A stretch of 64,000 nt of DNA from an uncultured Gammaproteobacteria bacterium. Lineage in GTDB: Bacteria > Pseudomonadota > Gammaproteobacteria > CAWCPV01. Of the stretch, positions 1-37,826 are shown piece by piece. The position numbers were made by a program, and so were the translations under genes. Position 1 is the first letter of the stretch, and the number at the start of each line of letters is the position of its first letter. Below the pieces are notes generated by a model. That model was not told the DNA's origin and did no database searches. It saw only the letters and a program-made list of their open reading frames with translations. The stretch lies in assembly GCA_963797555.1 (NCBI GenBank), contig CAWCPV010000003.1, positions 384,001 through 448,000 on the forward strand, given 5' to 3'.

Positions 1-801
1 TGATCCTGTTCCTGGCGCTGCAGGCGTGGGAATACTTCGGTCCGCAAAAGCCGGACATCAGCCCCGCCAGAAAACGGGTGGCCGACCGGGTGGTCGGCAT
101 GATCGTCGAGGATCTGCGCGACGCGCACGTCACTATCCGCCATGCGGCCCTGCTGCACCTCGCCAACGACCCGTCCGATTATTTCACCGACCGGCTACGG
201 AGTGTCCTCGCTGAGTCCGGGGTGGCAGGTCTGCAGGATCGGACCTTTGGCGAGAAGCTGCGCGGCGTTTCTGCGAATGCAGGAGCCGGCCTATGGAAGT
301 TTGGCCAAGGTGCTCAAGGCGGGACGGCGGCGCGGCGCGGACTATGTCATTTTTGGAGTTATCGACACATTCGAGTCGTCCCGGGAGGGCGCTCGCATCG
401 ATGTGGAGGTGAGCGCGGCGGACGTCGCGAAGGGGGCGGTGGTCTTTGCGCATCGTTATCACGAGAAGCTTTCCCCGGGACTTCTCGCCAGTGTAGCGGT
501 TCAAGATCAGGTGCAGGCGGTCGGCGCGCTGAAGCGGTTTCTGGCCTGGTCGCTGATCGTGCTGCTGCTGCCGGTATTCACCATCGGTTTTATCCGCGGC
601 ATGGTGCGGCGGGAATCGAATGCCGCCAATGCGGTAACCTTGGCGATATACACCGGTGTGGATGCGATACTCGCCTACCTGCTGCTGGTGCGCGGGTTAT
701 CCGCGTGGGGGCCGGTGCTGGCGTGGTTGGGGGCGGTGGGGGCGGCGTCACTATATAACCTGTACGTCATGAGCTTTGCGGTTCGGCTGGAGGCGTCGTG
801 A
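1..801 (+). CDS. Membrane protein, 5'-partial: soluble CsgG/TolB-N-like domain plus about 3 C-terminal TM helices; frameshifted near 270-290
   Basis: ORF 78.. (DRVVGMIVEDLRD...LANDPSDYFTDRLR) continues into ORF 142..801 (GADYVIFGVIDTF...RIDVEV, then hydrophobic helices). Its stop overlaps the next start (GTGA at 798-801). Confidence 0.5.
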
Positions 802-2972
802 GGCGCTATGCCTTGCTGGTGGGGGTCGATGCCTATGCCGATCGGGCCATCCCGCCGCTGCGTTTTGCCGAGCGCGATGCGCAGGCACTGGGAAGGGTGC
901 TCGCCGAGCGGTACGGATTCGAGGTTCGGTGTTTGGTGGGGGAGGAAGCGCGGCGCGAGGCGATCCTGAATGTATTAGGGAGCGGGCGGCTCTCGGAGCA
1001 GGCCGTGCCCATGCAGGCGGGCGATCAGTTTCTGTTCTTCTTCGCCGGGCACGGCGAGCTGGTGGGTAGCAACTATGTCTTGCACCCGTGGAATGCCAAG
1101 GCGGGGGCCCATTATATGTCGATCACCAGGATCGACATCAGCTCTCTGCTGGGCAGCAACGTGCCGTGCGGGGAGTGCATGTGCATTCTAGATGCCTGCC
1201 GCAACCTGGCGCCAGCGGGGGCGCGGGGCGGACAGGCGCTCGATGAACGGTCGGCCCGAGATATCCAGGCCGTGCACCGGGAGGCGCCGCACAAGCTCAT
1301 CAAGGTGCTATACGGTTGCAGCGAGGGCGAGCGGAGCTGGGAGGACGAGCGGCTGGGCCAGGGGGTGCTCAGCTACTATCTGAAGCGGGTGCTGGAGAGT
1401 GCAGAGGTGGCGTCCTTCGAGGAGCTGGCCGAGCGGGCGGCCGATGAGATGCGAAAAAGTTGGCGCCATTGGGAGTTCGAGGGAGCAACCCAGGTGCCGC
1501 ACATATACGGGCCGACCACGGGTCGGCGAATTCGCCTGGAGGTGGCCCGGCGGCGGGTGTGGGTCTCGCCGGGCCTTGCCGAGCAGGGCATGGTGCGGCA
1601 ATTCGGCCGCGGTGTCATCCGGCACGTGCTTCTGCCCACGGAGGACCGCGTGATCGTGGCGGCTGGGGGGTCGGTGGCGCTGTTCGATATGGACACAGGC
1701 GAGGCGCCGTGGGAGATCCAGGGCCGGGTCGGGGGGTGCGCGGTGAGCCCCGACGGTGCGCTGGTGGCGGTGGCCGAGGGTACAGAGGTGCAGCTTTGGC
1801 ATCCGGCCAGTGGCGAGCTGAGGGCACGCCTTCGGGGGCATCCACGCCCCGTGACCAGTGTCACGTTCAGCCCGGACGGGCGGTGGCTCGCCTCGGGCAG
1901 TGACGACGAGACGGTGCGGTTGTGGGAGGTGGCGAGCGGCAAGGAGCTGAAGCGCTTTGAGGGGCACGGTGGCGGGGTGGAGAGTGTCGCCTTCAGCCCC
2001 GACGGCCGGTGGCTCGCCTCGGGCAGTGACGACCGGGCGGTGCGGTTGTGGGAGGTGGCGAGCGGCAAGGAGCTGGAGCGCTTTGAGGGGCACGATGATG
2101 TGGAGCGGAGCGTCGTTCTCAGCCCCGACGGACGGTGGCTCGCCTCGGGCAGTGAGATCGAATACGACGACCGCTACGACGATTGGGCGTCGGTGCCGTT
2201 GTGGGAGGTGGCGAGCGGCGAGGAGCTGAAGCGCTTTGAGGGGTACGGTGGCCGGGTGGAGAGTGTCGCCTTCAGCCCCGACGGCCGGTGGCTCGCCTCG
2301 GGCAGTTGGGACAAGACGGTGCGGCTGTGGGAGGTGGCGAGCGGCGAGGAGCTGAACGGCTTTGTGCACGGTGGCGGGGTGGAGAGTGTCGCCTTCAGTC
2401 CCGACGGCCGGTGGCTCGCCTCGGGCGGTTGGGACGAGACGGTGCGGCTGTGGGAGGTGGCGAGCGGCAAGGAGCTGAAGCGACTTGAGGGGCACGGTGG
2501 CGGGGTGGAGAGTGTCGCCTTCAGCCCCAACGGCCGGTGGCTCGCCTCGGGCAGTGACGACGAGACGGTGCGGTTGTGGGAGGTGGCGAGCGGCAAGGAG
2601 CTGAAGCGCTTTGAGGGGCACGGTGCCGGGGTGCGGAGTGTCGCCTTCAGCCCCGACGGCCGGTGGCTCGCCTCGGGCGGTTGGTTCGGCACGGTGCAGT
2701 TGTGGGAGGTGGCGAGCGGCAAGGACCTGAAGTGGCTTGACGGGCGCGGTGGCCGGGTGGAGAGTGTCGCTTTCAGCCTCGACGGCCGGTGGCTCGCCTC
2801 GGGCAGTTGGGACAAGACGGTGCGGTTGTGGGAGGTGGCGAGCGGCGAGATGCTGAAGCGCTTTGAGGGGCACGGTGCCGGGGTGCGGAGTGTCGCCTTC
2901 AGCCCCGACGGCCGGTGGCTCGCCTCGGGCAGTTTTGACGGCACGGTGCGGCTGTGGGAAGTCAGGGGATAA
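798..2972 (+). CDS. Caspase-like (peptidase C14) domain plus WD40 repeat protein
   Basis: N-terminal RYALLVGVDAY, His motif FFAGHG and Cys motif LDACR; C-terminal nine near-identical WD40 units (GH...SVAFSPDGRWLASG..D.TVRLWEV). Confidence 0.9.
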   Translation: MRRYALLVGVDAYADRAIPPLRFAERDAQALGRVLAERYGFEVRCLVGEEARREAILNVLGSGRLSEQAVPMQAGDQFLFFFAGHGELVGSNYVLHPWNAKAGAHYMSITRIDISSLLGSNVPCGECMCILDACRNLAPAGARGGQALDERSARDIQAVHREAPHKLIKVLYGCSEGERSWEDERLGQGVLSYYLKRVLESAEVASFEELAERAADEMRKSWRHWEFEGATQVPHIYGPTTGRRIRLEVARRRVWVSPGLAEQGMVRQFGRGVIRHVLLPTEDRVIVAAGGSVALFDMDTGEAPWEIQGRVGGCAVSPDGALVAVAEGTEVQLWHPASGELRARLRGHPRPVTSVTFSPDGRWLASGSDDETVRLWEVASGKELKRFEGHGGGVESVAFSPDGRWLASGSDDRAVRLWEVASGKELERFEGHDDVERSVVLSPDGRWLASGSEIEYDDRYDDWASVPLWEVASGEELKRFEGYGGRVESVAFSPDGRWLASGSWDKTVRLWEVASGEELNGFVHGGGVESVAFSPDGRWLASGGWDETVRLWEVASGKELKRLEGHGGGVESVAFSPNGRWLASGSDDETVRLWEVASGKELKRFEGHGAGVRSVAFSPDGRWLASGGWFGTVQLWEVASGKDLKWLDGRGGRVESVAFSLDGRWLASGSWDKTVRLWEVASGEMLKRFEGHGAGVRSVAFSPDGRWLASGSFDGTVRLWEVRG
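1830..2965 (+). repeat. Tandem ~126-bp WD40-coding repeats (9 units, nearly identical at DNA level)
   Basis: Recurrent ttcagccccgacggccggtggctcgcctcgggc...gtgcggttgtgggaggtggcgagcggc; one unit has a 9-aa insertion. Confidence 0.9.
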
Positions 2973-4495
2973 CGGTTCTACCGGTGGGCTTGGGGGTCGC
3001 GCCGAGCCGGGCACACCCGCCGGTTAGATGCTTTCTGGTGTCGTCCCTGCCATGGCCGCTTCGGCTCGCATTTCCGAAACTCACTCGGGACCAACACGGG
3101 CACGCCTGGGATCTGGTACTCGAAGGCGCGTGGGAGATCGTCGAGGGGCAGGTCTTCCTCGAAAATTTCGCTGTTCACCATGTCTTCGCCGAGCAGCCGC
3201 TGCGTAACTCTCTGGTCGAATCCTGGCTGACGGATAGGTTGGGCTACCGGGTGACCGACTTCGTGTCGGACAGCGAACCTCGCCCGACCGTGAGCGACCT
3301 CCAGGACTTGCCGGCAAGGTGGTGGCAAGCCCAGATCAGCAGGTGGCTCGCCGAGTACGGCATATCCGTCGATCTCACGGCCGCGCGCCTCGACAGCGCC
3401 GATGCCGCGCGAGCCGAAGAACAGCGCAGGCACCGTGCGCGCCTCGAGCAGGTGGAGATCGAGCACAAAGTCGAACGGGAAATGGAGCTGCGTCAGCTCG
3501 CCGCCGAGGCGGATTACGAGAACGAAAGAGCGCGTATCGAGCAGAGCGAGCGGGCGAGCGAGAGCGAGCGGGCGAGCGAGAGCGAGCGGCAGCACCAGCT
3601 CAAGTGTCTGGGGTTGCGGCACCAGAAGGAGGCGAAGGAGCTGGAAGTCGAGTTGGAGAAGCTGCGCTTCCAGAGCGAGCGGTCGCAGCTCGAGCACGAG
3701 GTGGCCGTAGCGGAGCTGCGCGCCGACCTGGAAGGCGCTCAACGGGCCGGCCGCAGACAGGAACGGCTGGAAGTGGACCACGCAGCCCTGCTGCACCGGT
3801 TACACCAGGTCCTGAACACGCTCGGCCGTTTCGATGCGCTCTCTCAGCAGCTCGCCAGCGCTAACGTCCGGGAGGCACACCTGGCGGCGGAGTGGCTCAC
3901 CTCTCCTGCATTCGGGTTCAGGCCGGAAGAGCTTCTCGTGTCGGGCGCTCCTTCGGCGGCTCAGAGACTGAAGCAGTGCCTGCGCGATAAGGCGGCGGAG
4001 CAGGAGCACCAAGTCGCGCTGAGCATGGCACAGCTCACCACCCGCGATATCGGGACGGCGGAGGTCAGGGCTCTGCGTATCAACAGCCCCCTCCGCTTCG
4101 AGATCAATTCGGCACGGGCCGGATACGTCACCGTCATCGACATCGGAACGAGCGGAACCGTTTACCTGCAGGTCCCCAACGCATATGTCGGTACAGCACG
4201 GGCGCGGGTATCGGCCGAACGCAGCTACCATATTCCGGGTCCAGAGCTGCTCCCAGGCGATGACCTGCTGGCGCACAGACTCGCTTACCTGGAGATCGGC
4301 CCGCCCGGATGGGAACACCTCGCCGTGGTGGTCAGCGAGCAGCCGCTCGTGCCCGACAGGATTGTCCGGCGCTCCCAGCCGACGAATCCATTCGTCAGCT
4401 TGTCCGCGTCCGAGGTCGACGAAATCCTGAATCGACTGATGGGATGGCCTGCAAGTGGCTGGTCGGCTGGCCTGCTCTCCTTCCTCGTAGAGTAG
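2954..4495 (+). CDS. Band-7/SPFH-like region, coiled coil and C-terminal DUF4384-like domain; start uncertain
   Basis: Central E/R/Q-rich coiled coil. The C-terminus LRFEINSARAGYVTVIDIGTSGTVYLQVPN...YHIPG...GPPGWEHLAVVVS matches the DUF4384 pattern. Confidence 0.6.
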   Translation: MGSQGITVLPVGLGVAPSRAHPPVRCFLVSSLPWPLRLAFPKLTRDQHGHAWDLVLEGAWEIVEGQVFLENFAVHHVFAEQPLRNSLVESWLTDRLGYRVTDFVSDSEPRPTVSDLQDLPARWWQAQISRWLAEYGISVDLTAARLDSADAARAEEQRRHRARLEQVEIEHKVEREMELRQLAAEADYENERARIEQSERASESERASESERQHQLKCLGLRHQKEAKELEVELEKLRFQSERSQLEHEVAVAELRADLEGAQRAGRRQERLEVDHAALLHRLHQVLNTLGRFDALSQQLASANVREAHLAAEWLTSPAFGFRPEELLVSGAPSAAQRLKQCLRDKAAEQEHQVALSMAQLTTRDIGTAEVRALRINSPLRFEINSARAGYVTVIDIGTSGTVYLQVPNAYVGTARARVSAERSYHIPGPELLPGDDLLAHRLAYLEIGPPGWEHLAVVVSEQPLVPDRIVRRSQPTNPFVSLSASEVDEILNRLMGWPASGWSAGLLSFLVE

Positions 4496-4534
4496 CATGA
4501 CTCCCGGTCCGCGCGACTATCAGGAATCGCCCCG

Positions 4535-5727
4535 GTGAGTGCCCCGGAAGTCGTTCACGGACCGACAATGGCGCCAGAGACGCTTACGTTGGCCCAATAT
4601 CAGAGTCTTCGCCGAGTGCACCGACCGCACCCCGGAGCAGAGCCGGCGGAGCCTCGACTTTCCCCTGCTCGGGTTGTTCGGGGAGGTGGGCAGCTTGCTG
4701 AGTGCGCTGAAGAAGAAGCAGCGCGATGCCGACTCTTACATCGGGTATGCCCCGTCGGTGGTCGAGGAGCTCGGTGACGTTCTGTGGTATTTTGCGAGCC
4801 TCGCCACACGCGCTGACATCGCCCTGCCCGAGCTTGCGCGCAATGCAGTGCGGAACTGGAGTATACAGGACGATAAGCCAAGCGCGGTGGTCGTCACGTT
4901 CGACGCCCTCCAACCAGACTTGGCCAACGACGGTCCGAAGCCGCCGGAAGCTTTCAGCGGAGCCTAATGCGGCTCGCCGGCGAGGTGGGCATTCTGATGG
5001 CGGATGTCGCCGCGGGCCGTCTGGCGGACGATCGGGCCGCCTTGTTCGTGCACATGAGCGCGGTCTTCACGTCGCTGGTAGCCGCCGCCAACGACGCGGG
5101 AGTATCCCTGGCGGATGCGGCTCATCGCAATCTGTGCAAGACATTCGATCGCTGGCCGCCCGATAAAACCTATCCGAGTCTTTTTGACGACGGGTTCGAC
5201 CGAGACGAGCAGATCCCGCGCAGGATCGAGGTGCACATTTTCGAAAAGACCGTTGCGGGGGCAACCTACGTCTTCCAAAGATGCAACAACATCAACATCG
5301 GCGAGCGCCTGACGGACAATAAGATCGAACAGGACGACTACCGATTCCACGATGTCTTCCACCTCGCCTATGCGGCGGTGCTGGGCTGGTCCCCGGTCAT
5401 CCGATGCCTGTTCAAATCAAACGCAAGAGCAAGCCAGAGGTCGACGAGGCCGAGGACGGGGCGCGCGCGGCGCTTATCGAAGAGGGTATCTCGACCTGGG
5501 TCTTCAATCACGCCGCCCGGCTGAACTTCTTCGAGAATCTGACGTCGCTGGATTACGGCCTGCTCAAGGCGGTGCACGAATTGGTTGTCGGCTACGAGGC
5601 CGAACGCTGTCCGTTGTGGCTGTGGGAGGAGGCAATCCTGCAAGGCTATGCGGCGTTCAGGGAGCTTCAGAAGTATCGCTGCGGCTTGGTAGTCGCCGAC
5701 CTCCATGGAGAGAACCATTATCTTTGA
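4535..5727 (+). CDS. MazG-like nucleoside triphosphate pyrophosphohydrolase with MazG C-terminal domain; split by about 3 frameshifts
   Basis: TLAQYQ; LGLFGEVGSLLSALKKKQRD...EELGDVLWY; second repeat LAGEVG; C-terminal GERLTDNK..DDYRFHDVFHLAYAAVLGWSP..KRKS.PEVDEAEDGARA. Spread over ORFs 4535, 4539, 4967 and 5404. Confidence 0.8.
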
Positions 5728-5739
5728 GAAAGCACCGGA

Positions 5740-6384
5740 ATGAGAGCTACCGCCTTCATCGACGCGCTGAGCGCGATATCGTTGAAGGCGGTTTTCAATC
5801 CCTACGCCGATCGCTGCGGTGTTCATGACCGCGAGGATGCTCCGGTTCTGCGCCGCTCCAATCTCCGAGTTACCCTCGAAGCCGTCCAGCACATAGATGT
5901 CCGTGCCATGTGGATCGCGCGGGATCTCGGTTACCGTGGCGGTCGCCGCACCGGGCTTCCCTTGACCGACGAGGTACACTTGCCTGCGTTCAGTCAGGCG
6001 TTGGGCGGGGTGCCGTTATCGCGGGCGACGATCGGGCCCCCCGTCGCCGAGCGCACCGCGGGCGTTATTTGGGATACGTCCTCGCTCGGATCCAGCAGCC
6101 GGTTTTTCTGTGGAACGTCTTTCCCTTTCATCCCTTCGAGCCGGGCGACCCCTTATCCAACCGCTGCCACAGCCGTAAAGAGCGGCTCGCCTGCGACCGG
6201 CTGCTGGTCGAATTGCTCAGCATGCTGGCGCCCGAGAACGATCGTCGCAATCGGTAGAGATGCCCGGCTTGCCCTCACCGAACTCGGCGTACCGTGCCGC
6301 TCTGTGCGTCACCCGAGCTATGGCGGGCAAACAGCCTTCGCCAGAGAGATTGGCGAGCTGTACGGACTCAACGCGGCGGCATGA
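5740..6384 (+). CDS. Uracil-DNA glycosylase superfamily protein; frameshifted
   Basis: FNPY, LGYRGGRRTGLPLTDE, ERTAGVIW, WNVFPFHP..SNR (ORF 5910) and VRHPSYGG. Confidence 0.8.
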   Translation: MRATAFIDALSAISLKAVFNPYADRCGVHDREDAPVLRRSNLRVTLEAVQHIDVRAMWIARDLGYRGGRRTGLPLTDEVHLPAFSQALGGVPLSRATIGPPVAERTAGVIWDTSSLGSSSRFFCGTSFPFIPSSRATPYPTAATAVKSGSPATGCWSNCSACWRPRTIVAIGRDARLALTELGVPCRSVRHPSYGGQTAFAREIGELYGLNAAA

Positions 6385-7213
6385 ACCGAAGCCGGCTCTG
6401 GCTTTTGATTAGCCACCGTCGTCTGCTGCCGTGTGCGCTCGCAGGTCCGCAACAGATCCTCGACCTCTGACCGGCGCCACTTTTGCGCCTCAACCTCCGC
6501 ATGTGTCGAGATGATCGTTAGAGCTCCGACCTCGACTCCCGCCTCCAAGCCGACAAAGGCCATGAGGTTGCCCAAGCCGACCAGGTTCCCGAGCAGCCGC
6601 TGGATATAGTAGTGATTGCGGTACAGCGCGGTCAGCGTCAGCCGGTTCTGCGGATCGAGCTTGAAACTGAGAAAACTGAGACACTGCCGATTCATGACGG
6701 GCGACGGAATCCCGCTCCGGGTCGTAGATGCCGATGTCGAGCGCAGGGTCCGAAATCGTCAGTTCATAGACATTGCGAAAGGTCCTTCCCTTCCCTTGGA
6801 CGTGTGCTCGAAGCTTGGCCACTAGGTCGGCCAAGGGATTGATGACTCGACCGTCGGCCGTCCGACGCCGGATCATGCGCTCGAAGTACCGCCCCCAGTC
6901 ACGCAGTCGCCCGCCTGACACGCGGGTAAACCGTCTCCAGATACACGTCGTAAAAGCTCGGGGCTCCATGCCGCTGGTAGAGCTGGTTCGGGAAGATGGT
7001 GTTGGCTACCGAGGCCAGCGGGTAAGCGCCGTGATGCCGCAAGAAATCGTCGAGCTGGTCAGCGAGCTGGTTGTCGGTCGCGGACCAATCCAGCGGGCTC
7101 TCCACGTCGACGATAACGTTATGAGCCTCGTGTCCCGGATTGGCGTCCACCGCCCGAACGGCAGCCAACCACGCCGAGGCGGCACTGTTATGAGGTTCGA
7201 CGGCCAGGTACAT
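6318..7213 (-). CDS. Thymidylate-synthase-fold protein, atypical; split over 3 ORFs by frameshifts
   Basis: VANTIFP; WGRYFERM; QCLSFLSFK (catalytic Cys position), LTLTALYRNHYY..RLLGNLVGL and GALTIISTHA align with the TS C-terminal motifs. ORFs 6899-7213, 6490-6969 and 6318-6695. Confidence 0.65.
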
Positions 7214-7865
7214 GTGTCAGGTCCTCGGTCAGCTCGATGGCCTCCAGTAAACGGGGTTCAAGATAGCACTCGTTAATCCAGGCATGTCCCTCGATACCCC
7301 AGCCCGTACCCCAGCTATTGCGGGCAAGGACAAGGCGATCTCCTCCGCGCATACCGTAGCCGACACCCACCAGCGCGTGCCGTCGAGTCGGGTCCACGGG
7401 CTCGTCGGCAGCAACGACACCATCTCCGTCCGGCAGGTAGAAGGCACCCGACAGATTCATCGCGACGACCACTGGGGTCCCTCGGTCCAAGCACTGAAGG
7501 ATGTCCTCCACGCGAAGGGACGCGCGCTGGCCCGCACGGCGGAAAAGCGGCCCAACCTTGTCCGGGGGATGCCAGTCGCCCAGATTGACCGGCAGCACCG
7601 CCAGGTATGGCCACGCGGCTTCATGCGGCTGACCATCATGGCGCAGGGTCGCAACCATTCCCTCCACCGTGGAGCCCGCATGCGGATTCCCACCACACCG
7701 GCGTACTGCGTGGTAGTACGCATACTCGCAGCAGAGCGGTTCCCAGCCCGGGCGCAACGCGGCATGCGCATCGCTCGCGGCAAAGGCGAGACAAGTCGGG
7801 CGGAGACCCTGGTCGCGGACCGGACCGAACAGAGGCCGCAGGTCGCACACGACCTCGAGGAGCAT
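7188..7865 (-). CDS. Papain-like (C1) cysteine protease
   Basis: DLRPLFGPVRDQGLRPTCLAFA (oxyanion Gln, catalytic Cys), HALVGVGY and RNSWGTGWG. Own ATG at 7865, although it reads in frame with the upstream gene in this assembly. Confidence 0.85.
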   Translation of the reverse strand: MLLEVVCDLRPLFGPVRDQGLRPTCLAFAASDAHAALRPGWEPLCCEYAYYHAVRRCGGNPHAGSTVEGMVATLRHDGQPHEAAWPYLAVLPVNLGDWHPPDKVGPLFRRAGQRASLRVEDILQCLDRGTPVVVAMNLSGAFYLPDGDGVVAADEPVDPTRRHALVGVGYGMRGGDRLVLARNSWGTGWGIEGHAWINECYLEPRLLEAIELTEDLTHVPGRRTS

Positions 7866-8876
7866 CAGGCTGCCTCGCGCGGTAAGCCGCCGCTCTGCTT
7901 GCGACAAGCCTTCCTCCTCCGGCCCGGTAAGATCGTAATCCACGTTGAAGGCCATCAGCGCCTTGTCGCGGGGGAGCCACGGCCGCCGCTCGGCCAGAAC
8001 CAAGTGCCCGCTCTGGCGCATCCTCGAGCGCGCGGTAATCCGCCGTGTCACATGAGCACCCACCGTGCTCTCGCCTGGCCCCTCGCGCTCGTCGCGAACT
8101 ATAGCGAAGCCCGTCTCGTCCAGCTCTTCAAAGCTCCAAAGATAGCCAGAGCCGCTATGCTCACTGAGCTGGAGCACGAACAGGTCAGAGCGGCTGCCTT
8201 GTAGAAGCGCGCCTTCATCGCGCTCGGTAAGCAGCCACACGTCTACCCACCAGCTCGGCGGAACGTATCCGCGAAGCAGATCCTTCTTGATCTCCCGAGG
8301 CTGCACGTCCAGAAGTGGCCGGAGAGTCTGTCGCCTGATGATGCCGTGCCGCAGTAGCGTCCAACAGGTTGCCTCGTAGCTCGCGCCAACGCGCAGCGCG
8401 AGCTGATAAACATTGCGGGGGTTCTCCATAGACCGGGGCGTCCAGCCCTGGCGTCTGAAGTGCGCCGCGAAGAGCCACTTGGGTAGCAAAAACTCGGCCG
8501 CGAAGGCATCCGCCTCCAGCTCCTGCTGCTCGTAATCCGGCCGTGCCGAAAAAAGCGATCTGCGCAAGATCGTGTCGTCATCGAGGCTAGGGCGGTGACC
8601 CAGTCGAGCATGGCCCAGTTCGTGCGCCCCCGTGAAGCGCTGTACGCTCAGCGGCCGTTGCGTCGTGACGAGAATCCCCGGGATAGGCTCCGAGAGATAC
8701 ACGCCGAGCAGCCCATCCATGGGCTTGAAGAGCAAGGGGATGCCCATGTGCACGATGGCGTCGAAGACATCGATCCGGCCCCCTTCCGCCTCGATGCGCA
8801 CCCGCATGTCGAACTGGCGATGTAGCCGCGCCGCCTCACGTGTGCCGCGCAGAATGCCAGTGCGTGCGTCAGCCAT
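7866..8876 (-). CDS. ImmA/IrrE-family Zn metallopeptidase with C-terminal chagasin (I42)-like domain
   Basis: RFTGAHELGH and E.EADAFAAEFLLP. The C-terminal LSEHSGSGYLW...VGA...ERRPW resembles the chagasin loops NPTTGYxW and RPW. Confidence 0.8.
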
Positions 8877-9264
8877 CTCCTGCTTGCTCCGCCTGTGCCC
8901 GGGCCCGCAGGTAGTCGGCAAAGCGGCTTAGCTCCTGGCGGTCCCGATCCGACAAGCCGGCTGCGGCTCTCGCCAGATGCGCAATGTCCTCTGGGAGGCC
9001 CGATTCAACCGGCGCCTCGCCCGTGAAGTAACCCACGGGCCGCTTATACAGCTCTGCAAGCCGCTTCAGCTCCAGAGCATCCACGCGCCGCTGGCCGGTC
9101 TCGATATTCGAGAGAGCTGAACGTGGGATCCCGAGACAGCGTGCAACTTCTTCCTGGGATAGACCAAGATAGTCCCGGGCATCGCGCAGGCGCGCCCCAA
9201 GCTGCTCCCGAGTCTGGATCTCAACGTTCGCAAAACCGACAGATTGGTCACTGTTTGCGCTCAT
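8869..9264 (-). CDS. XRE-family helix-turn-helix regulator
   Basis: LGARLRDARDYLGLSQEEVARCLGIPRSALSNIETGQRRV; overlaps the peptidase start. Confidence 0.9.
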   Translation of the reverse strand: MSANSDQSVGFANVEIQTREQLGARLRDARDYLGLSQEEVARCLGIPRSALSNIETGQRRVDALELKRLAELYKRPVGYFTGEAPVESGLPEDIAHLARAAAGLSDRDRQELSRFADYLRARAQAEQAGDG

Positions 9265-9589
9265 AGGCTGACTCCCCGTGGTGTACGCTCCACTCGCGCT
9301 CTAACTTTGGCGCCAAATCGCTCACGAGCTCGTCCACGCTCCCGTAACCTCCGGGCTGTACGAGGCTCAAAGGCAGCTCAAACGACAGCTTGGACTCCAA
9401 CTGCACCAAGAGCTCTACTATCACTAAAGAGTCGATGCTCGGCTCAAAGCCCATACGGGCCGACCCGCCGCCACCGAGAGCCATCTCGGCACTCGCCATG
9501 TCCGCCAGGAAAGTTCGGATGCACGCATCGACCTCCTCCGCCGGAAAGGCGGGGGCGGTCGCGGGCGTCTGTAGTGCAGTGGTTACCAT
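9248..9589 (-). CDS. Acyl-carrier-protein-like protein
   Basis: 113 aa, acidic, with IDSLVIVELLVQLE (phosphopantetheine-attachment DSL motif) and SVDELV. Confidence 0.65.
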   Translation of the reverse strand: MVTTALQTPATAPAFPAEEVDACIRTFLADMASAEMALGGGGSARMGFEPSIDSLVIVELLVQLESKLSFELPLSLVQPGGYGSVDELVSDLAPKLEREWSVHHGESAYERKQ

Positions 9590-9613
9590 AGAAGCACCAC
9601 GTTAGTTCGAATA

Positions 9614-9650
9614 TCAGACAAATGATAGCCGATTATGTCTGAAAAACAAA
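9614..9650 (-). promoter_or_regulatory. Candidate promoter and operator for the ACP-HTH-peptidase operon
   Basis: AT-rich patch with inverted repeat TCAGACA(9614-9620)-N15-TGTCTGA(9636-9642), bracketing a minus-strand TATCAT -10-like hexamer. Confidence 0.4.
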
Positions 9651-9900
9651 CTCTCCATGGACAGAACGCGAGCTTGATGCTGGACGAAAGGCAGCGGAAG
9701 CCAGGGAGCGCGCAGGGATCGGTGCAGTGCGTGAACGATGTGGAATCTCGGGCTTCCGGTGCGGCACGATGCCCTCGGATCCCTGGACAGCACTGTGTTG
9801 CATCCGGGCTACGATGTGGGGGTCACCCGCTGAGTCCCGGATTGAGAGCTGGACACGGACGCGCTCGGTGGCATACAGCGCGGGGGGGCGGAGTGTCGCT

Positions 9901-11070
9901 CTAGTCGCGCCGCAGCCGGTCGGACACCGCTATGGGCGTGGGATATTTCAGAACGATCCAATAAGCGGACGCAATGAAAGTGAGGAGCGTGGCGAGCTGG
10001 ATGAGGTGTGCCACCGGCTTGTCGATGACGCCGCTGTCGGCTGCCATGTATCCGATGAGGAGGGAAAACTCGCTCGCCTGCCCCAGGCGCACCCCGATCT
10101 CCCAGGGTAGACCGGGTGCCTCTTCGAACCGGCGCAGCAGGGCGCTGAACGTCACCGGCTTGACCACCAACAGAACCGAGGCCAGCGCAGCGCCGGGCAG
10201 AATCACCTCGCGGACCGCGGCGACCTCGAAGCTTCCACCGAGGGATACGAAGAACAGCACAAGAAAAAAATCGCGCAGCGGCTTGAGACTCTCGGCAATG
10301 AACAGCGAGAGCGGCGTGGTGGCGATGGCAACGCCGGCGATGAACGAGCCGATTTCGGGGGAGAGCCCAACGGCGCTCGCCAGCTCCGCCATTCCCAGGC
10401 ACCAGCCGATGGACAGGAGAAACAGGTACTCGTGGAACCGGTCGAAGCGCGCGAACAATCGCACGAGGACATAGCGCTGAGCGACAAAGGCAAATACGAC
10501 CAAGAGTGGAAGCAGCAGGAAACGGGCCACGGCCGGCGCCGCCTCGATGGGCGGGCGACCGAGACCCTGCAGGACCAGCAAGACCACAATGGCCAGCAAG
10601 TCCTGTAGCAGCAGGATGCTGATGATCACTCCACCCGCACGCCGATGGTGCAGCACGGTGGTGGGCAGGAGTTTGACCCCCAGGATAGTGCTCGAGAACA
10701 TCATCGCCGTGCCGACCACGAGCGAGTCACGCAGGCCGAACCCGAAGGAGATGGTGAAGAGTGCGGCCACGCCCCCGAAGATGAAGGCGCTGCAGAGTGT
10801 CGTGACGGTGGCCTCGCGCAGCATCTCCGCGAGGCGCTGGGGGTGCAGGTTCAGACCCAGCAGGAAGAGCAGAAAGATGATGCCCACGTGGGCAAGCTGG
10901 TCGATCAGTTCAGGGCTGCTCAGTACCCCCGCTCCGGACGGACCGAGCAGCATGCCGACGAGGATATAGGCGACCAGCAGTGCCTGGCGCGCATACAGCG
11001 CCGCTGTGGCGAGGGTTGCAGCGCCTGCAAAGACCACAAACAGGTTGAATATCAGTGGATCGCCAGTCAC
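9901..11070 (-). CDS. Cation:proton antiporter (CPA2/Kef-like)
   Basis: Multi-TM protein with GIIFLLFLLGL, MFSSTI, ILLLQD and LGQASEFSL. Confidence 0.9.
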   Translation of the reverse strand: MTGDPLIFNLFVVFAGAATLATAALYARQALLVAYILVGMLLGPSGAGVLSSPELIDQLAHVGIIFLLFLLGLNLHPQRLAEMLREATVTTLCSAFIFGGVAALFTISFGFGLRDSLVVGTAMMFSSTILGVKLLPTTVLHHRRAGGVIISILLLQDLLAIVVLLVLQGLGRPPIEAAPAVARFLLLPLLVVFAFVAQRYVLVRLFARFDRFHEYLFLLSIGWCLGMAELASAVGLSPEIGSFIAGVAIATTPLSLFIAESLKPLRDFFLVLFFVSLGGSFEVAAVREVILPGAALASVLLVVKPVTFSALLRRFEEAPGLPWEIGVRLGQASEFSLLIGYMAADSGVIDKPVAHLIQLATLLTFIASAYWIVLKYPTPIAVSDRLRRD

Positions 11071-12411: not shown

Positions 12412-13408
12412 ATGAGCCCAGACCAAGACCTTGCACCTTACCGCAATTTGGGGCCGGACAACATCCTGGACGCTGTGGAAGCCACCGGCCTGCGCTGGAA
12501 TGGCCGGCTGCTCCCACTGAACAGCTATGAGAACCGCGTCTACCAGGTCGGCATCGAAGGAAGCCAACCCATCGTGGTGAAATTCTACCGGCCGGAGCGA
12601 TGGTCCGACGAGGCCATTCTGGAGGAGCATCGCTTCACCCTCGAGCTGGCCGAGCAGGAAATCCCGGCCGTGCCGCCCCTACCGGATGACCAGGGAAACA
12701 CGCTGCGGCGACACGGACCATTTCGGTTCGCGGTGTACCCGCGGCGCGGAGGACACCCGCCCGAGCTGGACAATCCCGACCACTTGGAGCAGCTCGGCCG
12801 CTTCCTGGCCCGCATCCACAACGTGGGCGCGGTGCACCCATTCCTCCACAGGCCCACCCTGGAGATCCAGCACTTCGGAGTGGAATCGTATCGTTACCTG
12901 CTGCAGGAGCGGATCATCCCGGATGATCTCAGCCCCGGCCTACAGCAGTCTGGCCGAGCATCTCATCGAGCGCGTCCGGGACTGCTACGCCCGGGCGGGC
13001 AACGTCCAGTATCTGCGGCTGCACGGTGACTGCCACCCGGGCAACATCCTGTGGACCGAGCAAGGCCCCCATGTCGTGGACTTCGATGACGCCCGTATGG
13101 GGCCCGCAGTCCAGGACCTGTGGATGTTGCTGTCGGGCGAGCGTCCATACATGACCGCACGGCTCGCCGATCTGCTGGAGGGATACACGATGTTCCGTGC
13201 GTTCGACGCGCGCGAGCTAAATCTGATCGAGGCCTTGCGGACCCTGCGCATGATGCACTACGCGGCCTGGATCGCCAGGCGCTGGGAGGACCCCGCGTTT
13301 CCTCGCGCCTTCCCATGGTTCGGCAGTTCCCGATACTGGGAGGACCACATCCTCTCCCTGCGGGAGCAGGCAGCGCTCATGGACGAGCCGCCTCTTTACT
13401 GGGACTGA
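12412..13408 (+). CDS. srkA: Stress response Ser/Thr kinase SrkA/RdoA (YihE); frameshift near 12935
   Basis: LNSYENRVYQ, KFYRPERWS, RLHGDCHPGNILW and DFDDARMGPAVQDLWM across ORFs 12412 and 12686. Confidence 0.9.
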
Positions 13409-14827: not shown

Positions 14828-15604
14828 CTAGGAACGGTCAGCCCCTGGTGACGCGCCGGGACTCTTTCCGGAGCCGTCGCGGCAGCGCACCGAGATGCCA
14901 AGCCCGCCGAGCGCGTGCTCCATCTGCGCCTCCCAGCCTCGATTGGCGGCTGGGCTGGCGGGACTCGGATGGGGTACGAGGCCGACGCGGACCGAGGCGG
15001 GATTCAGGGCCGCTGCGACCCGCTGCGCCGCGAACCGCCCGACCCCGACCACGTAACGCGGTGTCAGACAGGCGACACTGTGCCCGAGGGCGGCGTCGCA
15101 AAGGCCGAACAGCTCTTCGCGGTCCTTTGCCGGCAGCCGGTCCGGGGTGAGATTGCGGCCGCTCGCCTCCAGGAAGCACAGAGGACAGTAGTTGAGCACG
15201 AAAAACTGCGCGAAGAAGTGCTCCGGCGCACCGCAGGCCGCTCGCGCCCAGCCCCACAGCCGCCGCCCGCTGACCTCCTGCCGAGCGCAGGCGAATCCCT
15301 GAACGGGACGTCGCGGATGCTGGGATGCCGGCTTGCGCACAGGCGCCCGGATGCCCAGCCAGTCGCGCACCATGTGCACGTCTCCGAAGGGGACGCCGGT
15401 CTGGACCATACCCCAAGGCCCCGGATTCATACCGACCAAGACCACCTCGCGGCGTCCCTGTCCGAACCTCCTGATGTAGTCCCCGTGGGCGGCCCAAGCA
15501 TAGTCGAGAGGGTTGTATACATGAGCCACCGGAGCACCGAAGCGCAGCCGTCCGGCGGCCGCCCCCAGACGCCGGGCGATCTCCAGCAAGTCCGCATGCG
15601 CCAT
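14828..15604 (-). CDS. SMUG1-type (family 3) uracil-DNA glycosylase
   Basis: YNPLDYA, GMNPGPWGMVQTGVPFG, EVSGRRLW, NYCPL and HPSPASP. Confidence 0.9.
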   Translation of the reverse strand: MAHADLLEIARRLGAAAGRLRFGAPVAHVYNPLDYAWAAHGDYIRRFGQGRREVVLVGMNPGPWGMVQTGVPFGDVHMVRDWLGIRAPVRKPASQHPRRPVQGFACARQEVSGRRLWGWARAACGAPEHFFAQFFVLNYCPLCFLEASGRNLTPDRLPAKDREELFGLCDAALGHSVACLTPRYVVGVGRFAAQRVAAALNPASVRVGLVPHPSPASPAANRGWEAQMEHALGGLGISVRCRDGSGKSPGASPGADRS

Positions 15605-27939: not shown

Positions 27940-29604
27940 CCTGGATCCATGACTTGAATCTCCGAGCGCCCGGGGCGCGAGAGAATGGGAGCTATTCTCA
28001 GTTGAGTTGGTTAGTTTTTAGCCAACCGGTGACGCCGGCTATGTACAGCGGGCGTAGACCCTCGTCGGCGCAGGAGTGACGGCGGGGCTTTGAGGCTTGG
28101 ACGCTGAATTTCGGGCGTAGGTTTACACCGGGGTCTGGTGAGGCCCGGGTCGAGTTTCTATGGAGGTCGTCCTAGCTACCCGAAGGCGAGTTGGTAATAC
28201 AGCTGCTCGAAGGCGCGGAAGCCGGGACAGAGCCGGCTGAAGCGCAGCTTCAGTCTGCGGGCGGTGGCGACCAACCGGGCGGCGAGGTACATCAGTTCCT
28301 GGAGGACGGTCTTGATCCGCCGGCGCTTGGCCGGATGGCGCAGGGGAGCCGACTCGCCGGTCAGCCCGATGAGCCCGATGAAGCGCAGGATGTTGTAGGC
28401 GAACACGGCAAAGGCGAGCACCAGGTCATTGGTGTCGAATTTCCCGGAGGGCAGCCGTTCGATATCGAGGTCGGTCTTGAACTCGCTGTGGAACTGCTCG
28501 GAGGTGCCGTGGTCACGGTACAGGGCGACAATCTCCGCGTCCGGATAGGCGAGCAAGGTCCACCAGCCCTCGAGCTCCAGCTCCGGTACCAACAGCGCCT
28601 GGCCCTTCTTGTCGATGGTGCGCTCGGTCACCCGCATCACCCGGCGAACGTGGTAGGTGTGCTCCCGATGGGGGTGCTCCTCGACGACGCTGAACAGCGC
28701 CACGCGCTTGCCGGGTCGGGGTGTCTCCCATGCCCCTTGGCGCTCGGCGCGCTCCAGCCAATGGGCAGGGTCCTCGCCCCGAGGGTTCCACTGGATAATG
28801 AAGTCCACCTCCTCTTCGAGGTAGCGCAGCCGGTTCTCCAAGGCGTTGTGGGCGCTGTCCTGGCGCACCAGCAGCGGCAGTTTGGTCAGGCGCCTGGCCC
28901 GCGGCAGGATGCGCTCCCAGACCTAGCCGAATTCCTTCTGACTGTGCTGCTTGCCTTCTCGCAGCTCACAGCCGACGCACCACCCTTCGGTTCCCACATA
29001 GGTCGCGATCGGCGCATAACCGTCATAGCCGTGGTAGGTGCGCGAGACTCCTTCTTGCTTGGTCCCGGAGTTGTCCATGGGAAAGACATCGATGTCCACC
29101 GGCACATGACCGGTCTTGAGCGCACTGACCGGTGCCTTGGCGTTGACCATGAACTCGATATCGGCCTCGTCAATGACCTCCCGCAGGACCGCTGCGTGCT
29201 CGTCAAGACGCTGCCTCAGCGTTTCTGGCGAGGGTACCCGCTCCAGCCCCAACGCCTGGCGGAAGAAATCGTCCTCTCGGACGTTGGAGACCGCTTCGAA
29301 GTCACTCTTGCCCAAACACATCAACCCCAGATAGCTCTTGGCTACGTCTTCATGGGAGATGCCGTGGCGTAGCGGGATCGCCTGCTTCAGCGCCTTGCCC
29401 AGGCCGCTGAAGCGGTTGACGCAAAGACCGACCAAGGCCAGACCAGAATGGGAGGTGTAAAATTCCTCATCGGACTGCTCCAAGATGAACCGCTTCATCG
29501 TTCACCTGCCGGGTGAGCTGGAGTGCGGCCCGATTTTAGCTGAACTGCAATGATAAATCAGCAGGTTGCGGCCATCCGCTGAGACGCGAAGTCACGGAAT
29601 CAGG
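27940..29604 (-). mobile_element. IS1380-family insertion sequence
   Basis: IRs CCTGGATCCATGACTT / AAGTCACGGAATCAGG (13/16 match) and 5-bp target duplication ATAGA (27935-27939, 29605-29609). Confidence 0.92.
28176..29498 (-). pseudogene. IS1380 DDE transposase with in-frame TAG at 28923-28925
   Basis: TSHSGLALVG, PSPETLRQRLD, VDIDVFPMDNS, RQDS, YRDHGTSEQFHSEFKTDLDIERLPSGKF; both ORFs are in the same frame. Confidence 0.85.
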
Positions 29605-30550
29605 ATAGAATCAATGAAGACGATGTTTTGTTGTACACACTACACGTGAATTTCAATTCGCTGTGGGAAACGAATTCTTTAGATAGATGCAACAAGATTT
29701 TGGCTGACGGCAATCAAATCCCATTTATAAGAGCGTTTACAGACTCACTCTCGAAAAGTTTTGAGTGCCTTTCGGTGTTTTTCGGCAGTCATGAGCGGAA
29801 CAACTTTGAGATTCATTCATTGGTAACACTTGGCGGCATAGGCGTTGCGTTGCCGTTTATAATTAAAGCGTGTAGATATGGTTTGTCGCGTGATGAGATT
29901 GGTGGGCTGTGTTCATCGTTAGAAGCACTGGTGCTTCGGCATAGGATAATCGGTACGCGAGCAGACATTACCTCAAGAGTCAACGATGTGTTCGAGAAGT
30001 TTACGGAAAACGACAAGGACACGTCCCCGATAGTTTCGCGAATCGATTGGATGAAGACGACGACGGACTGGTGGTGTGCCCACTGGAACAATGAAAAATT
30101 TAGGGAGGCCCTTCAAGGGGGGCTCAATCATTCAGTTGCAAAATTCCTGCTCTGGAAATATGAAAATCACCTGATAGGAATTGGCAAGGGCGGCTCTATT
30201 TCGCGCTACGACCAAATTGAGCGACCGGAGCTCGAACACATTGCTCCGATTACGGAGCCTGAAAGTAGGCCGCACGGGTATGACACATATGACGAAGAGT
30301 TTTGTAATCAATTTATAGACTGCCTAGGCAATTACTTGCTTTTAACAAGAAGGCACAACCGTTCCATCCAGAACGATCCATTTCTGGTAAAACACGAGGA
30401 CTATACGTGGCTTGCACAGCAAAGGGAGGTGCGAAAGTTAGTTCCACACCCCGACACGGGCATCTGGAGCAGGCAGATAATACAAGAGAGGAAGGAAAGG
30501 ATCATTGCAGTAATCATGGCGATTTGCTGAAGGCCGATAGGAAGTCGTGC

Positions 30551-30686
30551 ACAGCTACAGCTACAGCTAATGGGGTCCAGCTACAGCTACAGCTACAGCT
30601 ACAGCTACAGCTACAGCTACAGCTAACAGCTAACAGCTAATGGGGTCAGACACGTAACAGCTAATCAGCTAATGGGGTCAGACACG
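30551..30686 (+). repeat. Ladder of tandem, variably 3'-truncated copies of CAGCTAATGGGGTCAGACACG
   Basis: Units read CAGCTA, CAGCTAA, CAGCTAAT, CAGCTAATGGGGTC and CAGCTAATGGGGTCAGACACG, all with the same 5' start. Confidence 0.9.
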
Positions 30687-30693
30687 ATAATCT

Positions 30694-31407
30694 GTGCTAT
30701 CCTTCGTGCAGTCACTTCACGACCTGAACCGCCAGCCGCAGCATGTCATCCAGCGCGGCAACAACCGCCAGGTGATCTTCGCCGCGGATGCGGACTATCA
30801 GTTTTTTCGCGATGCCCTGGTGGAAGCGGCAAGTCAGCATGGTCTGTCGATCCACGCGTATGTCTGGATGACCAACCACATCCATCTCCTGGCCACACCT
30901 GAATGCGACCACAGCATCAGCAAAGTCCTCCAGTCAGTGGGTCGGCGTTATGTGCAGTACTTCAACTTCGCATACCGGCGCAGCGGCACCTTGTGGGAAG
31001 GCCGCTACCGGGCGACGGTCGTCGATAGCGAGCGGTATCTGCTGACGCTGATGCGCTACATCGAGCTCAACCCGGTGCGGGCGGCCCTGGTGGCGCACCC
31101 CAGGGATTACCCCTGGTCCAGCTACCGGCGCAATGCGCATGGCGAGTCGGGATTGAACGCAGACTGGATGAGGCCGCACGAGGAATATCTGCGCTTGGGC
31201 CTTACTCCGGCGGAGCGGCAAGGTGCCTACCGGCAATTGTTCCGGGCGGCCGTCTCCGGCAACGACCTGAGGGAGATCCGTGAGTGCACGCACAAGGGCT
31301 GGGCGCTCGGCGGCAACCGGTTCAGGGACCAGGTCGAGGCGCTGGGGCAGCGGCGTGCAGCGTCCAAGGGTGTGGGCAGGCCGAGAAAGGACGATCATCG
31401 CGTCTGA
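30694..31407 (+). CDS. REP-associated tyrosine transposase (RAYT / Y1 HUH); N-terminus looks atypical
   Basis: QHVIQRGNNRQVIF, HAYVWMTNHIHLL (HUH), LWEGRY, YIELNPVRA, YPWSSY and C-terminal GRPRK. Flanked by inverted AATGGGGTCAGACACG (30671) and CGTGTCTGGCCCCGTT (31410). Confidence 0.9.
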   Translation: MLSFVQSLHDLNRQPQHVIQRGNNRQVIFAADADYQFFRDALVEAASQHGLSIHAYVWMTNHIHLLATPECDHSISKVLQSVGRRYVQYFNFAYRRSGTLWEGRYRATVVDSERYLLTLMRYIELNPVRAALVAHPRDYPWSSYRRNAHGESGLNADWMRPHEEYLRLGLTPAERQGAYRQLFRAAVSGNDLREIRECTHKGWALGGNRFRDQVEALGQRRAASKGVGRPRKDDHRV

Positions 31408-31425
31408 CCCGTGTCTGGCCCCGTT
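31402..31425 (-). repeat. Tandem GGG(G)YCAGAC REP-like motifs downstream of RAYT
   Basis: gtctgaccc-gtgtctggccccgtt; the first copy overlaps the RAYT stop codon. Confidence 0.75.
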
Positions 31426-31647
31426 CCTCTCGTTTCGTCGTCGTGTTCATCTTCGCCTCCTCGTTCGCCCCTCGGACCCGTCCCGGGGTTGAGCACATAT
31501 CAGGCGTCGGTGGCGACGAAGCTCAAGGTATTTCGACGGGTTACGACTCCCTGACAGCGGCGAACACCGCACATGAGGAGCTGGGGCGCCTTGGCCCACA
31601 TACGGCGTTGACGGGCGATGTCCTGATCACGTATACGTGAGCCCTCT

Positions 31648-31872
31648 TTGCACCCTGGACGTGAGGGAGAGGTGCCCGAGCACAACGACGAGAAGAAGCT
31701 CCGCATTCGCATGGACGAGGAGCTTCACCGACAGATTGGGATTCGTTGCGCCGAGATCGACACGACCATCGAGGACTCTGTCGTGGAGATGCTGGAACGG
31801 GACCTTTCGGCCAACGGAATCAGGAGTCGGTCCTCAGCAAGGTCTCCGGGGCGGAGGGAGAAGGGTCGATGA
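31648..31872 (+). CDS. Small ribbon-helix-helix-like DNA-binding protein
   Basis: KKLRIRMDEELHRQIGIRCAEIDTTIEDSVVEMLERDL has the RHH beta-helix-helix pattern. Confidence 0.45.
   Translation: MHPGREGEVPEHNDEKKLRIRMDEELHRQIGIRCAEIDTTIEDSVVEMLERDLSANGIRSRSSARSPGRREKGR

Positions 31873-37803: not shown

Positions 37804-37826
<23 letters not shown>
37364..37826 (+). pseudogene. DsbD_2/TauE-SafE-like membrane protein with internal deletion and frameshift
   Basis: HCLGMCG..AYSAGRVGTY jumps straight to YMLAFGLGTLP; the expected middle part (LPCGLVY motif) is absent. Confidence 0.65.

Follow-up and report, generated by a model that had tools for sequence, protein, structure and literature searches.

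The closest described counterparts of the locus analysed here are nucleotide-modifying systems reported with DefensePredictor (DeWeirdt et al., Science 2026, PMC13092281). The locus is a cassette of seven genes at positions 4535-9650 of a 64,000-nucleotide stretch of DNA from an uncultured gammaproteobacterium (contig CAWCPV010000003.1, positions 384,001 to 448,000), which we call the window throughout. One strand carries a MazG pyrophosphatase and a gene of the uracil-DNA glycosylase (UDG) superfamily. Converging on these are genes for a carrier-protein-like product, an XRE-family helix-turn-helix (HTH) repressor, an ImmA metallopeptidase fused to a chagasin inhibitor domain, a papain-family protease and a thymidylate synthase (TS)-fold enzyme. 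In the DefensePredictor study an Escherichia coli unit with TS, dNMP-kinase, 5-hydroxymethyl-deoxyuridine (5-hmdU) DNA kinase and NMAD domains protected against phages. This unit resembles our cassette in combining a TS-fold enzyme with nucleotide and 5-hmdU kinases; a sister class of the cassette has the TS-like gene together with a PF18723 kinase. It differs in that no HTH/ImmA switch, carrier, papain/chagasin pair or UDG is mentioned in the available description of the unit, on which the comparison is based. Figure 6F of the same paper presents predicted, unvalidated systems with MazG, MazG-C and UDG (HTH is in the same legend) and refers to Burroughs et al. 2015 (NAR 43:10633). In the available parts of the text these domains are implicated in nucleotide modification, MazG-C is termed a 'predicted nucleotide kinase', and the systems are said to lie sometimes in defence islands. 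Compared by the legend, their domain vocabulary equals that of the plus-strand half of our cassette.

The regulators have relatives of their own. CapH/CapP of CBASS, ImmR/ImmA of ICEBs1 and DdrO/IrrE share with the cassette an adjacent XRE HTH gene and M78 HExxH peptidase gene placed upstream of the genes that they control. Unlike these pairs, the peptidase of the cassette has a C-terminal chagasin domain, a carrier gene precedes the pair and the cargo is another one. Phage hypermodification, T4 biology included, reportedly combines a dUMP or dCMP hydroxymethylase with a dNTPase, a dNMP kinase and a 5-hmdU DNA kinase (5-HMUDK). The cassette appears to follow the same logic, pairing a candidate hydroxymethylase of the TS fold with a pyrophosphatase and with kinases, among them the 5-hmdU DNA kinase of the sister class. 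Yet it is cellular or plasmid-borne and under the control of a repressor; besides a glycosylase it includes a carrier and a protease, and an aGPT-Pplase was not seen in it. As in other pairs of chagasin (I42) and papain (C1), inhibitor and protease are encoded side by side, are gained or lost together and keep the catalytic residues of papain; what sets the cassette apart is that a regulatory metalloprotease carries the inhibitor as a fused domain, the pairing being read from gene content.

No effector model of PADLOC-DB 2.0.0 (2023) matched the MazG, UDG, TS, papain or carrier proteins at E ≤ 0.01, with either the pieces in the window or the intact proteins of two homologous loci (L024 and L007) as queries. 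The regulators are recognized, as capH and capP, and only these; thus the effectors are without a named model there but the switch is not. Literature searches for MazG with ImmA, TS and UDG, or for chagasin with ImmA and MazG, gave nothing relevant, and nothing was returned for MazG_C or PF18722 by name; Iyer et al. 2013 and Burroughs et al. 2015 may already describe the neighbourhood. The original prediction, made from the letters of the window, called the cassette undescribed. This was overstated, since the DefensePredictor paper, as far as it is available, contains both a unit of TS and 5-hmdU kinase and predicted MazG/MazG-C/UDG systems. The cassette resembles nucleotide-modifying systems that are already known or predicted.

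The cassette as a conserved unit

How widely are the seven genes kept together? A profile search with the ImmA-chagasin(-papain) protein in contigs from one genome per species gave 80 loci, anchored on the ImmA-chagasin/papain pair. They span the Alpha-, Beta- and Gammaproteobacteria, Acidobacteriota, Planctomycetota, Nitrospirota, Gemmatimonadota and Myxococcota; two of the loci are plasmid-borne. Genes were counted in these loci by tblastn with the intact proteins of L024, a locus in a metagenome-assembled genome of the Acidobacteriaceae. Papain is present in all 80, the HTH in 79, the TS-like gene in 78, MazG in 69 and the carrier in 62. UDG occurs in 43 loci and the PF18723 5-hmdU DNA kinase in 29 (E ~1e-113), and not one of the 80 has both. 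Neither was found in eight loci, four of which end within ~120 nt of a contig end. MazG is present in 42 of the 43 loci of the UDG class. A phosphopantetheinyl transferase (PPTase) gene accompanies 11 of the 80 loci, ten from the 29 of the kinase class and one from the 43 of the UDG class.

The genes that flank the cassette in the window (caspase-WD40, DUF4384 and Na+/H+ exchanger), with the window's own pieces as queries, occur in none of the 80 loci. When the flanking open reading frames (ORFs) were clustered all against all, no family from outside the cassette recurred in more than 14 loci. Taken together, these two results indicate that 4535-9650 are the true boundaries of the cassette.

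A second sampling was anchored on the TS-like gene, and so avoids the bias of an ImmA/papain anchor. Matches at E ≤ 1e-5 were found in 29 of 401 genomes of the phylum. Six, the window's own included, are strong and near full length; the other 23 are partial and lie inside open frames of ~500-790 aa. All five of the strong loci outside the window have HTH and/or ImmA and MazG, together with UDG (three loci) or the kinase (two loci). Thus the two halves of the block do co-occur in other genomes, whichever anchor is used, as the original prediction had supposed. The TS-like gene is also found in 25 plasmid records (15 conjugative, 9 non-mobilizable and 1 mobilizable) and at three loci in IMG/VR, with the same cassette partners in both collections. 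At 50% identity the family forms 448 clusters at E ≤ 1e-30 and 1763 at E ≤ 1e-3. It has no match in 50,697 phage records, and a prophage origin of the cassette was rejected on that ground. In all, the cassette occurs in at least seven bacterial phyla, on one haloarchaeal plasmid and on conjugative plasmids. Judged by co-occurrence, the seven genes are a conserved unit, far beyond chance.

Variants of the cassette are found on plasmids. A Streptomyces plasmid locus has an 'acyl carrier protein', the HTH, a short ImmA that lacks chagasin and the TS-like gene, with no papain; the 5-hmdU kinase gene is convergent and a short MazG-MazG_C gene divergent. The same set is co-directional in Nostoc, beside plasmid-borne holA, dnaX and dnaN. 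In this kinase-class locus (L087, Nostoc sp. C057 plasmid p057_B, 10350-14654) a replicon that may make modified nucleotides has its own clamp and loader genes. A Mycobacterium plasmid version adds a holo-acyl carrier protein synthase and a MazG-MazG_C-thymidylate-kinase fusion; in the archaeon Haloarcula the plasmid version also has tmk, the kinase and a PPTase. Chagasin is present in all eight TS-anchored loci with a C1 peptidase, and in none of the five that have an ImmA match without C1.

Other additions are seen at a few loci. A calcineurin-like metallophosphatase (718-863 aa) stands directly beside the cassette in four of them (L053 6708-8900, L072 171-2327, L073 12584-14776 and L081 3221-5812), and may be an optional component. 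Single loci have at their edge a dCTP-deaminase-like gene (L063 13009-13356), a thymidylate kinase (L065 5525-6145) or a 5'-nucleotidase (L066 11944-13620). At L051 (9636-12106) an IS21-like element, with a Mu-type transposase and IstB, interrupts the cassette between the papain gene and the TS-like gene.

The seven genes and their operator

The ORF table and family scans place all seven families at 4535-9650 in a convergent layout, as originally described. On the plus strand MazG and MazG_C lie in pieces, followed by a 214-aa ORF that intact homologues assign to the UDG superfamily. The ORFs of the minus strand are a 113-aa carrier-like protein, the XRE HTH, a 577-aa ImmA/chagasin/papain ORF and three pieces of the TS-fold gene. 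In the intact reference L024 one strand encodes proteins of 112, 129, ~338, 233 and 266 aa, and the opposite strand proteins of 215 and 421 aa. Intact cassettes of the UDG class are also present in Erythrobacter westpacificensis JCM 18014 (L007), Sphingobium lactosutens DS20 (L028) and Methylorubrum rhodinum DSM 2163 (L036).

The MazG gene (4535..5727, plus strand; PF03819 and PF18722) encodes a tandem all-alpha NTP pyrophosphatase joined to MazG_C. Intact homologues have this as one protein of 390-420 aa, which in the window occupies three frames (tblastn with the L024 MazG). PF03819 scores 32.6 bits in L007 (cut-off 22), and the window piece lies just under the cut-off at 21.3 bits. The acidic metal-binding residues E68, E95, E96 and D99 are invariant in 39 sequences. 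Profile comparison with the PDB matches the N-terminal domain to MazG and DCTPP1/RS21-C6 (E 1e-5). A model of MazG-MazG_C has a mean predicted local distance difference test (pLDDT) of 89.5, and similar structures match it mainly over residues 33-210. With the dimeric dUTPase 1w2y its tandem N-terminal half shares 194 aligned residues (Z 12.8, a value only moderately telling for helical proteins); the whole model has no Foldseek match at E ≤ 0.001. MazG_C matches PF18722 with E 2e-81 in L024, and with 5e-33 (model 3-91) and 1e-39 (model 83-180) for the window pieces. A search of the protein Atlas returned MazG_C clusters only.

The UDG-like gene follows (5740..6384, plus strand), with its middle third in another frame. 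Intact homologues exceed the PF03167 cut-off of 24.3 bits (L024 26.7 and L007 25.1 bits), and the frame-broken ORF of the window, as written, has no match to this family. Among 20 aligned sequences the motifs WxARDLGYRGGRRTG, WN-FP-HP and RHPSYGGQ are invariant or nearly so, the mean column identity is 58%, and the motif positions are like those of family 4. UDGs of family 4 hold an Fe-S cluster with four cysteines. Such a set is not conserved in the 20 sequences; C26 alone is invariant, and C142 nearly so. The score against TIGR00758 is 16.7 bits, with a cut-off of 125. By these comparisons the gene is best placed in a separate clade of the UDG superfamily, and not in family 4. The window has a second, unrelated UDG-superfamily gene (14828-15604, minus strand; PF03167 36 bits), presumably the host's own glycosylase.

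The TS-fold gene (6318..7213, minus strand) overlaps the 3' end of the UDG gene with its own 3' end by 67 nt. The L024 protein matches TIGR03283 (E 1.3e-9), and its AlphaFold2 (AF2) model (pLDDT 90.5) gave 360 matches to pdb in Foldseek at E ≤ 0.001. The top matches are thymidylate synthases, the CMP hydroxymethylase MilA and phage dCMP hydroxylase (probability 1.0, TM ~0.55). Cys175, Arg196 and Asn207, spaced by 21 and 11, are invariant in 42 of 42 sequences, in the UDG and kinase classes alike. C175 falls on the catalytic Cys in a hidden Markov model alignment to the Enterococcus faecalis TS. In the E. coli TS the nucleophile, the phosphate-binding Arg and the base-specifying residue are Cys146, Arg166 and Asn177, about 20 and then 11 residues apart, a spacing that C175, R196 and N207 match. 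The pieces in the window retain QCLSF, YRNH and LGN. Family scores and the TS fold model agree with the three predicted enzymes of nucleotides or DNA that had been recognized.

The papain-family cysteine peptidase gene (7188..7865, minus strand) scores above the cut-off of PF00112. Among 29-32 sequences Cys25 and His163 are invariant, and Gln19 and Asn183 are kept in at least 90%. It has its own ATG at 7865-7863, within a TGATG overlap with the preceding ImmA-chagasin gene (7865..8876, minus strand). The latter joins an ImmA/IrrE M78 metallopeptidase (PF06114), with a HELGH motif invariant among homologues, to a chagasin (I42) domain (PF09394, 28.9 bits, cut-off 27.2). Among the 120 best homologues listed most have 334-340 aa, without a papain part, and in most homologues the protein, of 336-338 aa, ends ...EAA*, its stop overlapping the papain start as TGATG. 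The single ImmA(chagasin)-papain ORF that had been proposed does not stand: the 577 aa arise from a frame break at ~7880 that removes the stop of ImmA-chagasin, and in most homologues these are separate genes. A native fusion was accordingly rejected for this locus; fused forms do exist elsewhere (P0003, P0012 and P0029).

The repressor gene (8869..9264, minus strand) matches HTH_31 and HTH_3. Its likeness and that of ImmA to CapH and CapP, suggested earlier, is seen in the PADLOC models (capH E 1.5e-12 and capP E 3.8e-14). The HTH and M78 peptidase genes are adjacent and upstream of the cargo, and the gene order is kept in 79 of 80 loci. The phosphopantetheine carrier-like gene (9248..9589, minus strand) is the first of the operon. 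Its PF00550 (PP-binding) match is below threshold in the window (17.9 bits, cut-off 20.8), with 32.7 bits for the Streptomyces homologue. Ser54 is invariant in 28 of 28 sequences, Asp53 is present in at least 90%, and a GGY motif specific to the family is conserved. The PPTases encoded with some cassettes imply that the carrier is probably phosphopantetheinylated.

Immediately upstream of the carrier gene an AT-rich stretch contains the inverted repeat TTTGATTTTCGGAC (9604-9620 and 9636-9652), which surrounds a TTTGnTTTTCrGAC box; the pattern is unique within the window. L024, L018 and L007 have comparable repeats ahead of their carrier genes, and there are conserved columns across seven aligned upstream regions. 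In 15 of the 80 loci, from several phyla, the box recurs at a distance of 395-444 nt upstream of the HTH match. A consensus promoter scan of 4300-10000 found no sigma-70-like site. It is because of the conservation across loci, and not of a match to a promoter consensus, that we propose repeat and box as the putative promoter/operator of the carrier-gene operon.

The state and surroundings of this copy

Tblastn of the L024 proteins, inspection of junctions and comparison with a sibling assembly located eight frame breaks relative to intact homologues. They fall in MazG (~4605, 4955 and 5405), UDG (6050 and 6235), TS (6905 and 6700) and the end of ImmA-chagasin (7880). The copy in the window is therefore a poor exemplar of the cassette. 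The breaks are not common to homologues: L024 is intact, and the sibling reads through at least three of them. In the sibling, a 196-kb contig whose proteins are 94-98% identical to those of the window, the TS gene P0398 is unbroken (280 aa, 94-97% identical). The MazG C-part P0394 is likewise unbroken at 258 aa and P0392 has the correct N-terminus, so that the breaks at ~4605 and ~5405 are read through. Only the break at ~4955 is shared, at a TAATG that forms a stop/start overlap; here the gene may truly be divided into two coupled ORFs.

Are the breaks real, so that this is a decaying cluster of pseudogenes whatever its function elsewhere? The density of about eight breaks in 5.1 kb would favour this. 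Judged by ORF tables and family matches, at most about five breaks are suspected in the remaining ~59 kb of the window, and none in the ~16.6 kb from tkt to gcv. The break at ~4955 common to both assemblies, the many insertion sequence (IS) elements of the window and the splitting of further accessory genes (FadJ, IS1380 and a dnaE2-like gene) point the same way. Against it, the sibling has an unbroken TS gene and MazG C-part, its ImmA junction (P0001) is in a different frame and its carrier gene (P0401) is shorter. The breaks are thus scattered differently in the two assemblies, as is expected of indel errors in a consensus. Moreover all catalytic motifs are retained in the window, with no in-frame stops or deletions. 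The source genome (5.35 Mb) is 84.6% complete in 20 contigs, with the cassette on contig 3, and no match to rpoB or rpoC models was found in the whole of it. Public reads were available from two soil-metagenome runs of one study, neither recorded as RNA, each with 0.09 of the sampled words; their eight Logan contigs (150-315 nt, 97-100% alike, gapless) bridge none of the breaks. We regard real decay as rather unlikely and think that most of the breaks are probably errors of consensus or assembly. As far as the source genome is concerned, the locus is probably not dead but mis-assembled.

The window has a GC content of ~64%. To the left of the cassette are genes for a caspase, a 508-aa protein of unknown type, an AAA+ ATPase, a 219-aa protein of unknown type, a caspase-WD40 protein of the EACC1-associated type and a DUF4384 protein. 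Together they form a cluster of conflict type, which lies between the genes of a malic enzyme and a cation antiporter; the cassette abuts it. The cluster extends over 142-4495 of the window together with L127 13004-17938 (G000:C3:379004-383938). It includes a Peptidase_C14 caspase, a 724-aa EACC1-type caspase with WD40 (8.6 tandem repeats of 126 nt, 1857-2959) and a 513-aa coiled-coil DUF4384 protein. Near the cassette the window has neither an integrase nor a tRNA gene, and a DNA search of 40 relatives from the same class, our comparison set, found no second copy of the cassette.

Elsewhere in the window an IS-rich stretch (28176-36347) has an IS1380 transposase split over two ORFs (28176-28868 and 28923-29498), a REP-associated tyrosine transposase (30694-31407), IS21 IstA/IstB (32765-35102) and an IS630 fragment (35670-36347). 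FadJ lies in two ORFs (59930-62033, minus strand). An SrkA-like kinase (12686-13408, plus strand), a sigma-54 activator (37780-38760, plus strand) and a histidine kinase (38972-39868, minus strand) each match the C-terminal part of their models only. On contig 10 of the genome dnaE is intact, and on contig 14 a second, dnaE2-like gene is split at model position 335/336.

A proposed function and its rivals

The enzymology points to the editing of pyrimidine nucleotides coupled to base excision, as had been suggested. We start from what the loci contain: gene content, conservation, folds, catalytic residues, the exclusivity of UDG and kinase, the links of chagasin with papain and of carrier with PPTase, and the operator. 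The substrates, order of steps, trigger and outcome that follow are what we infer. The mutual exclusion of UDG and kinase, the uracil-type Asn of the TS-fold enzyme and the dUTPase-like pyrophosphatase together argue for the inducible synthesis of a 5-substituted, likely hydroxymethyl, deoxyuridine; the 5-hmdU kinase of the sister class points to the chemistry of 5-hydroxymethyl-uracil.

We suggest, with about even confidence for and against, that the cassette is an inducible anti-invader system that acts by nucleotide poisoning and base excision. The XRE repressor would bind the conserved operator over the promoter of the carrier gene, and the ImmA/CapP-like metalloprotease would remove it once triggered, perhaps by DNA damage or the single-stranded DNA of an invader. 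Until then the chagasin domain of ImmA would keep the papain-like protease inactive. The tandem-MazG, dimeric-dUTPase-like pyrophosphatase could then convert a pyrimidine dNTP to its monophosphate, most likely dUMP, to whose C5 the TS-fold enzyme would attach a one-carbon unit, with 5-hydroxymethyl-dUMP the most likely product. MazG_C, as a predicted nucleotide kinase, and kinases of the host would re-phosphorylate the product, and replication would incorporate it. Finally the UDG-fold enzyme would attack the modified base in DNA, with the 5-hmdU DNA kinase taking its place in the sister class, so that replication or packaging of a replicating invader is blocked. The conflict-type cluster that the cassette abuts in the source genome, and genes of restriction-modification, abortive infection (Abi) or HipA that flank 7 of 43 non-redundant loci, favour this reading.

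Several points weigh against this scheme. It gives the carrier protein and the papain protease no step. 5-Hydroxymethyl-uracil is deduced solely from the kinase of the sister class and the Asn residue. The TTTGnTTTTCrGAC box was not found upstream of MazG in the 80 loci, so that joint induction of the MazG/UDG operon lacks this support. The copy in the window, as written, cannot yield full-length MazG, UDG, TS or ImmA. Lastly, a scan of 142 flanking ORFs in 43 non-redundant loci found genes of conjugation or integration nearest to the cassette in 21, and 15 of the 25 plasmid records are conjugative; such conjugative or integrative surroundings fit the cargo of a mobile element, with a possible role in counter-defence.

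Could the cassette, then, modify the element that carries it? On induction the element would swap thymine for a 5-substituted uracil, so that the restriction of a recipient fails, as in hypermodifying phages. The neighbours in those 21 loci include T4 coupling protein (T4CP), TrwC/MobA relaxases, DUF3363, ArdC anti-restriction protein, integrases, transposases and RepA, and on pHSL4 the cassette lies between relaxase and T4CP/VirB11 genes. HTH/ImmA pairs control the induction of integrative and conjugative elements. The enzyme set (TS-like, 5-hmdU DNA kinase, tmk and MazG) resembles the hypermodification tool-kit of phages. A protective modification is hard to reconcile with the glycosylase that is the partner in 43 of 80 loci, however. 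Nor was a transferase of the aGPT-Pplase type seen, and the TS-like family is absent from the phage records. The same elements commonly carry defence systems too. In the window itself the neighbours are of conflict type, with no integrase or tRNA gene at hand. We consider self-modification possible, and unlikely on balance.

A more distant possibility is that the cassette sanitizes the nucleotide pool under stress and repairs DNA by base excision, under a switch like IrrE/DdrO. The pyrophosphatase would clear damaged pyrimidine dNTPs (5-hydroxymethyl-dUTP, dUTP or 5-modified dCTP), the glycosylase would excise the same bases and the TS-like enzyme would restore thymidylate. This suits the closeness of the N-terminal MazG domain to DCTPP1/RS21-C6 and dimeric dUTPases, the conserved catalytic motifs of the UDG fold and the membership of ImmA in the IrrE family (PF06114). 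However, it leaves the carrier, the PPTase, the locked papain and the alternative 5-hmdU DNA kinase unexplained. Moreover the distribution is sporadic and mobile, with a strong TS-like match in six of the 401 genomes of the phylum, and the host already has the UDG-superfamily gene at 14828-15604. We think it improbable that sanitation is the function.

The original prediction of an inducible defence system thus fares in part: the conserved unit, the switch genes and the unit described with DefensePredictor make a role in defence plausible, although the conjugation or integration genes beside 21 of 43 loci would also fit counter-defence. Overall the observation on which the prediction rested is confirmed with corrections, and its interpretation is partly supported.

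The carrier protein and the papain presumably locked by chagasin are the most original features of the cassette. The fusion of an inhibitor to the regulatory metalloprotease suggests a possible relay of two proteases, ImmA and then the chagasin-locked papain. A speculative role for the carrier, which we regard as a long shot, is as a reactant. The phosphopantetheine thiol of the holo-carrier would capture the C5-methylene of uracil, either on the exocyclic-methylene intermediate of the TS-fold enzyme, or in DNA, once a leaving group has been created by the 5-hmdU kinase or an abasic aldehyde by the glycosylase. This would yield a nucleotide tethered to protein or pantetheine, or else a DNA-protein adduct, for the papain-like protease to trim. 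If true, a DNA hypermodification or DNA-protein crosslink of a new type would be at work in the conflicts of bacteria, plasmids and phages.

The putative two-protease relay and the carrier protein are explained by no current model of defence, and the new UDG clade, the TS-fold enzyme and MazG_C are testable enzymes that may provide new DNA-modifying tools. If the proposed anti-invader function is correct, phage-style 5-substituted uracil nucleotides would serve bacteria and plasmids as a weapon or shield that can be induced, with synthesis of the modified nucleotide coupled in one class to a glycosylase and in the other to a 5-hmdU DNA kinase.

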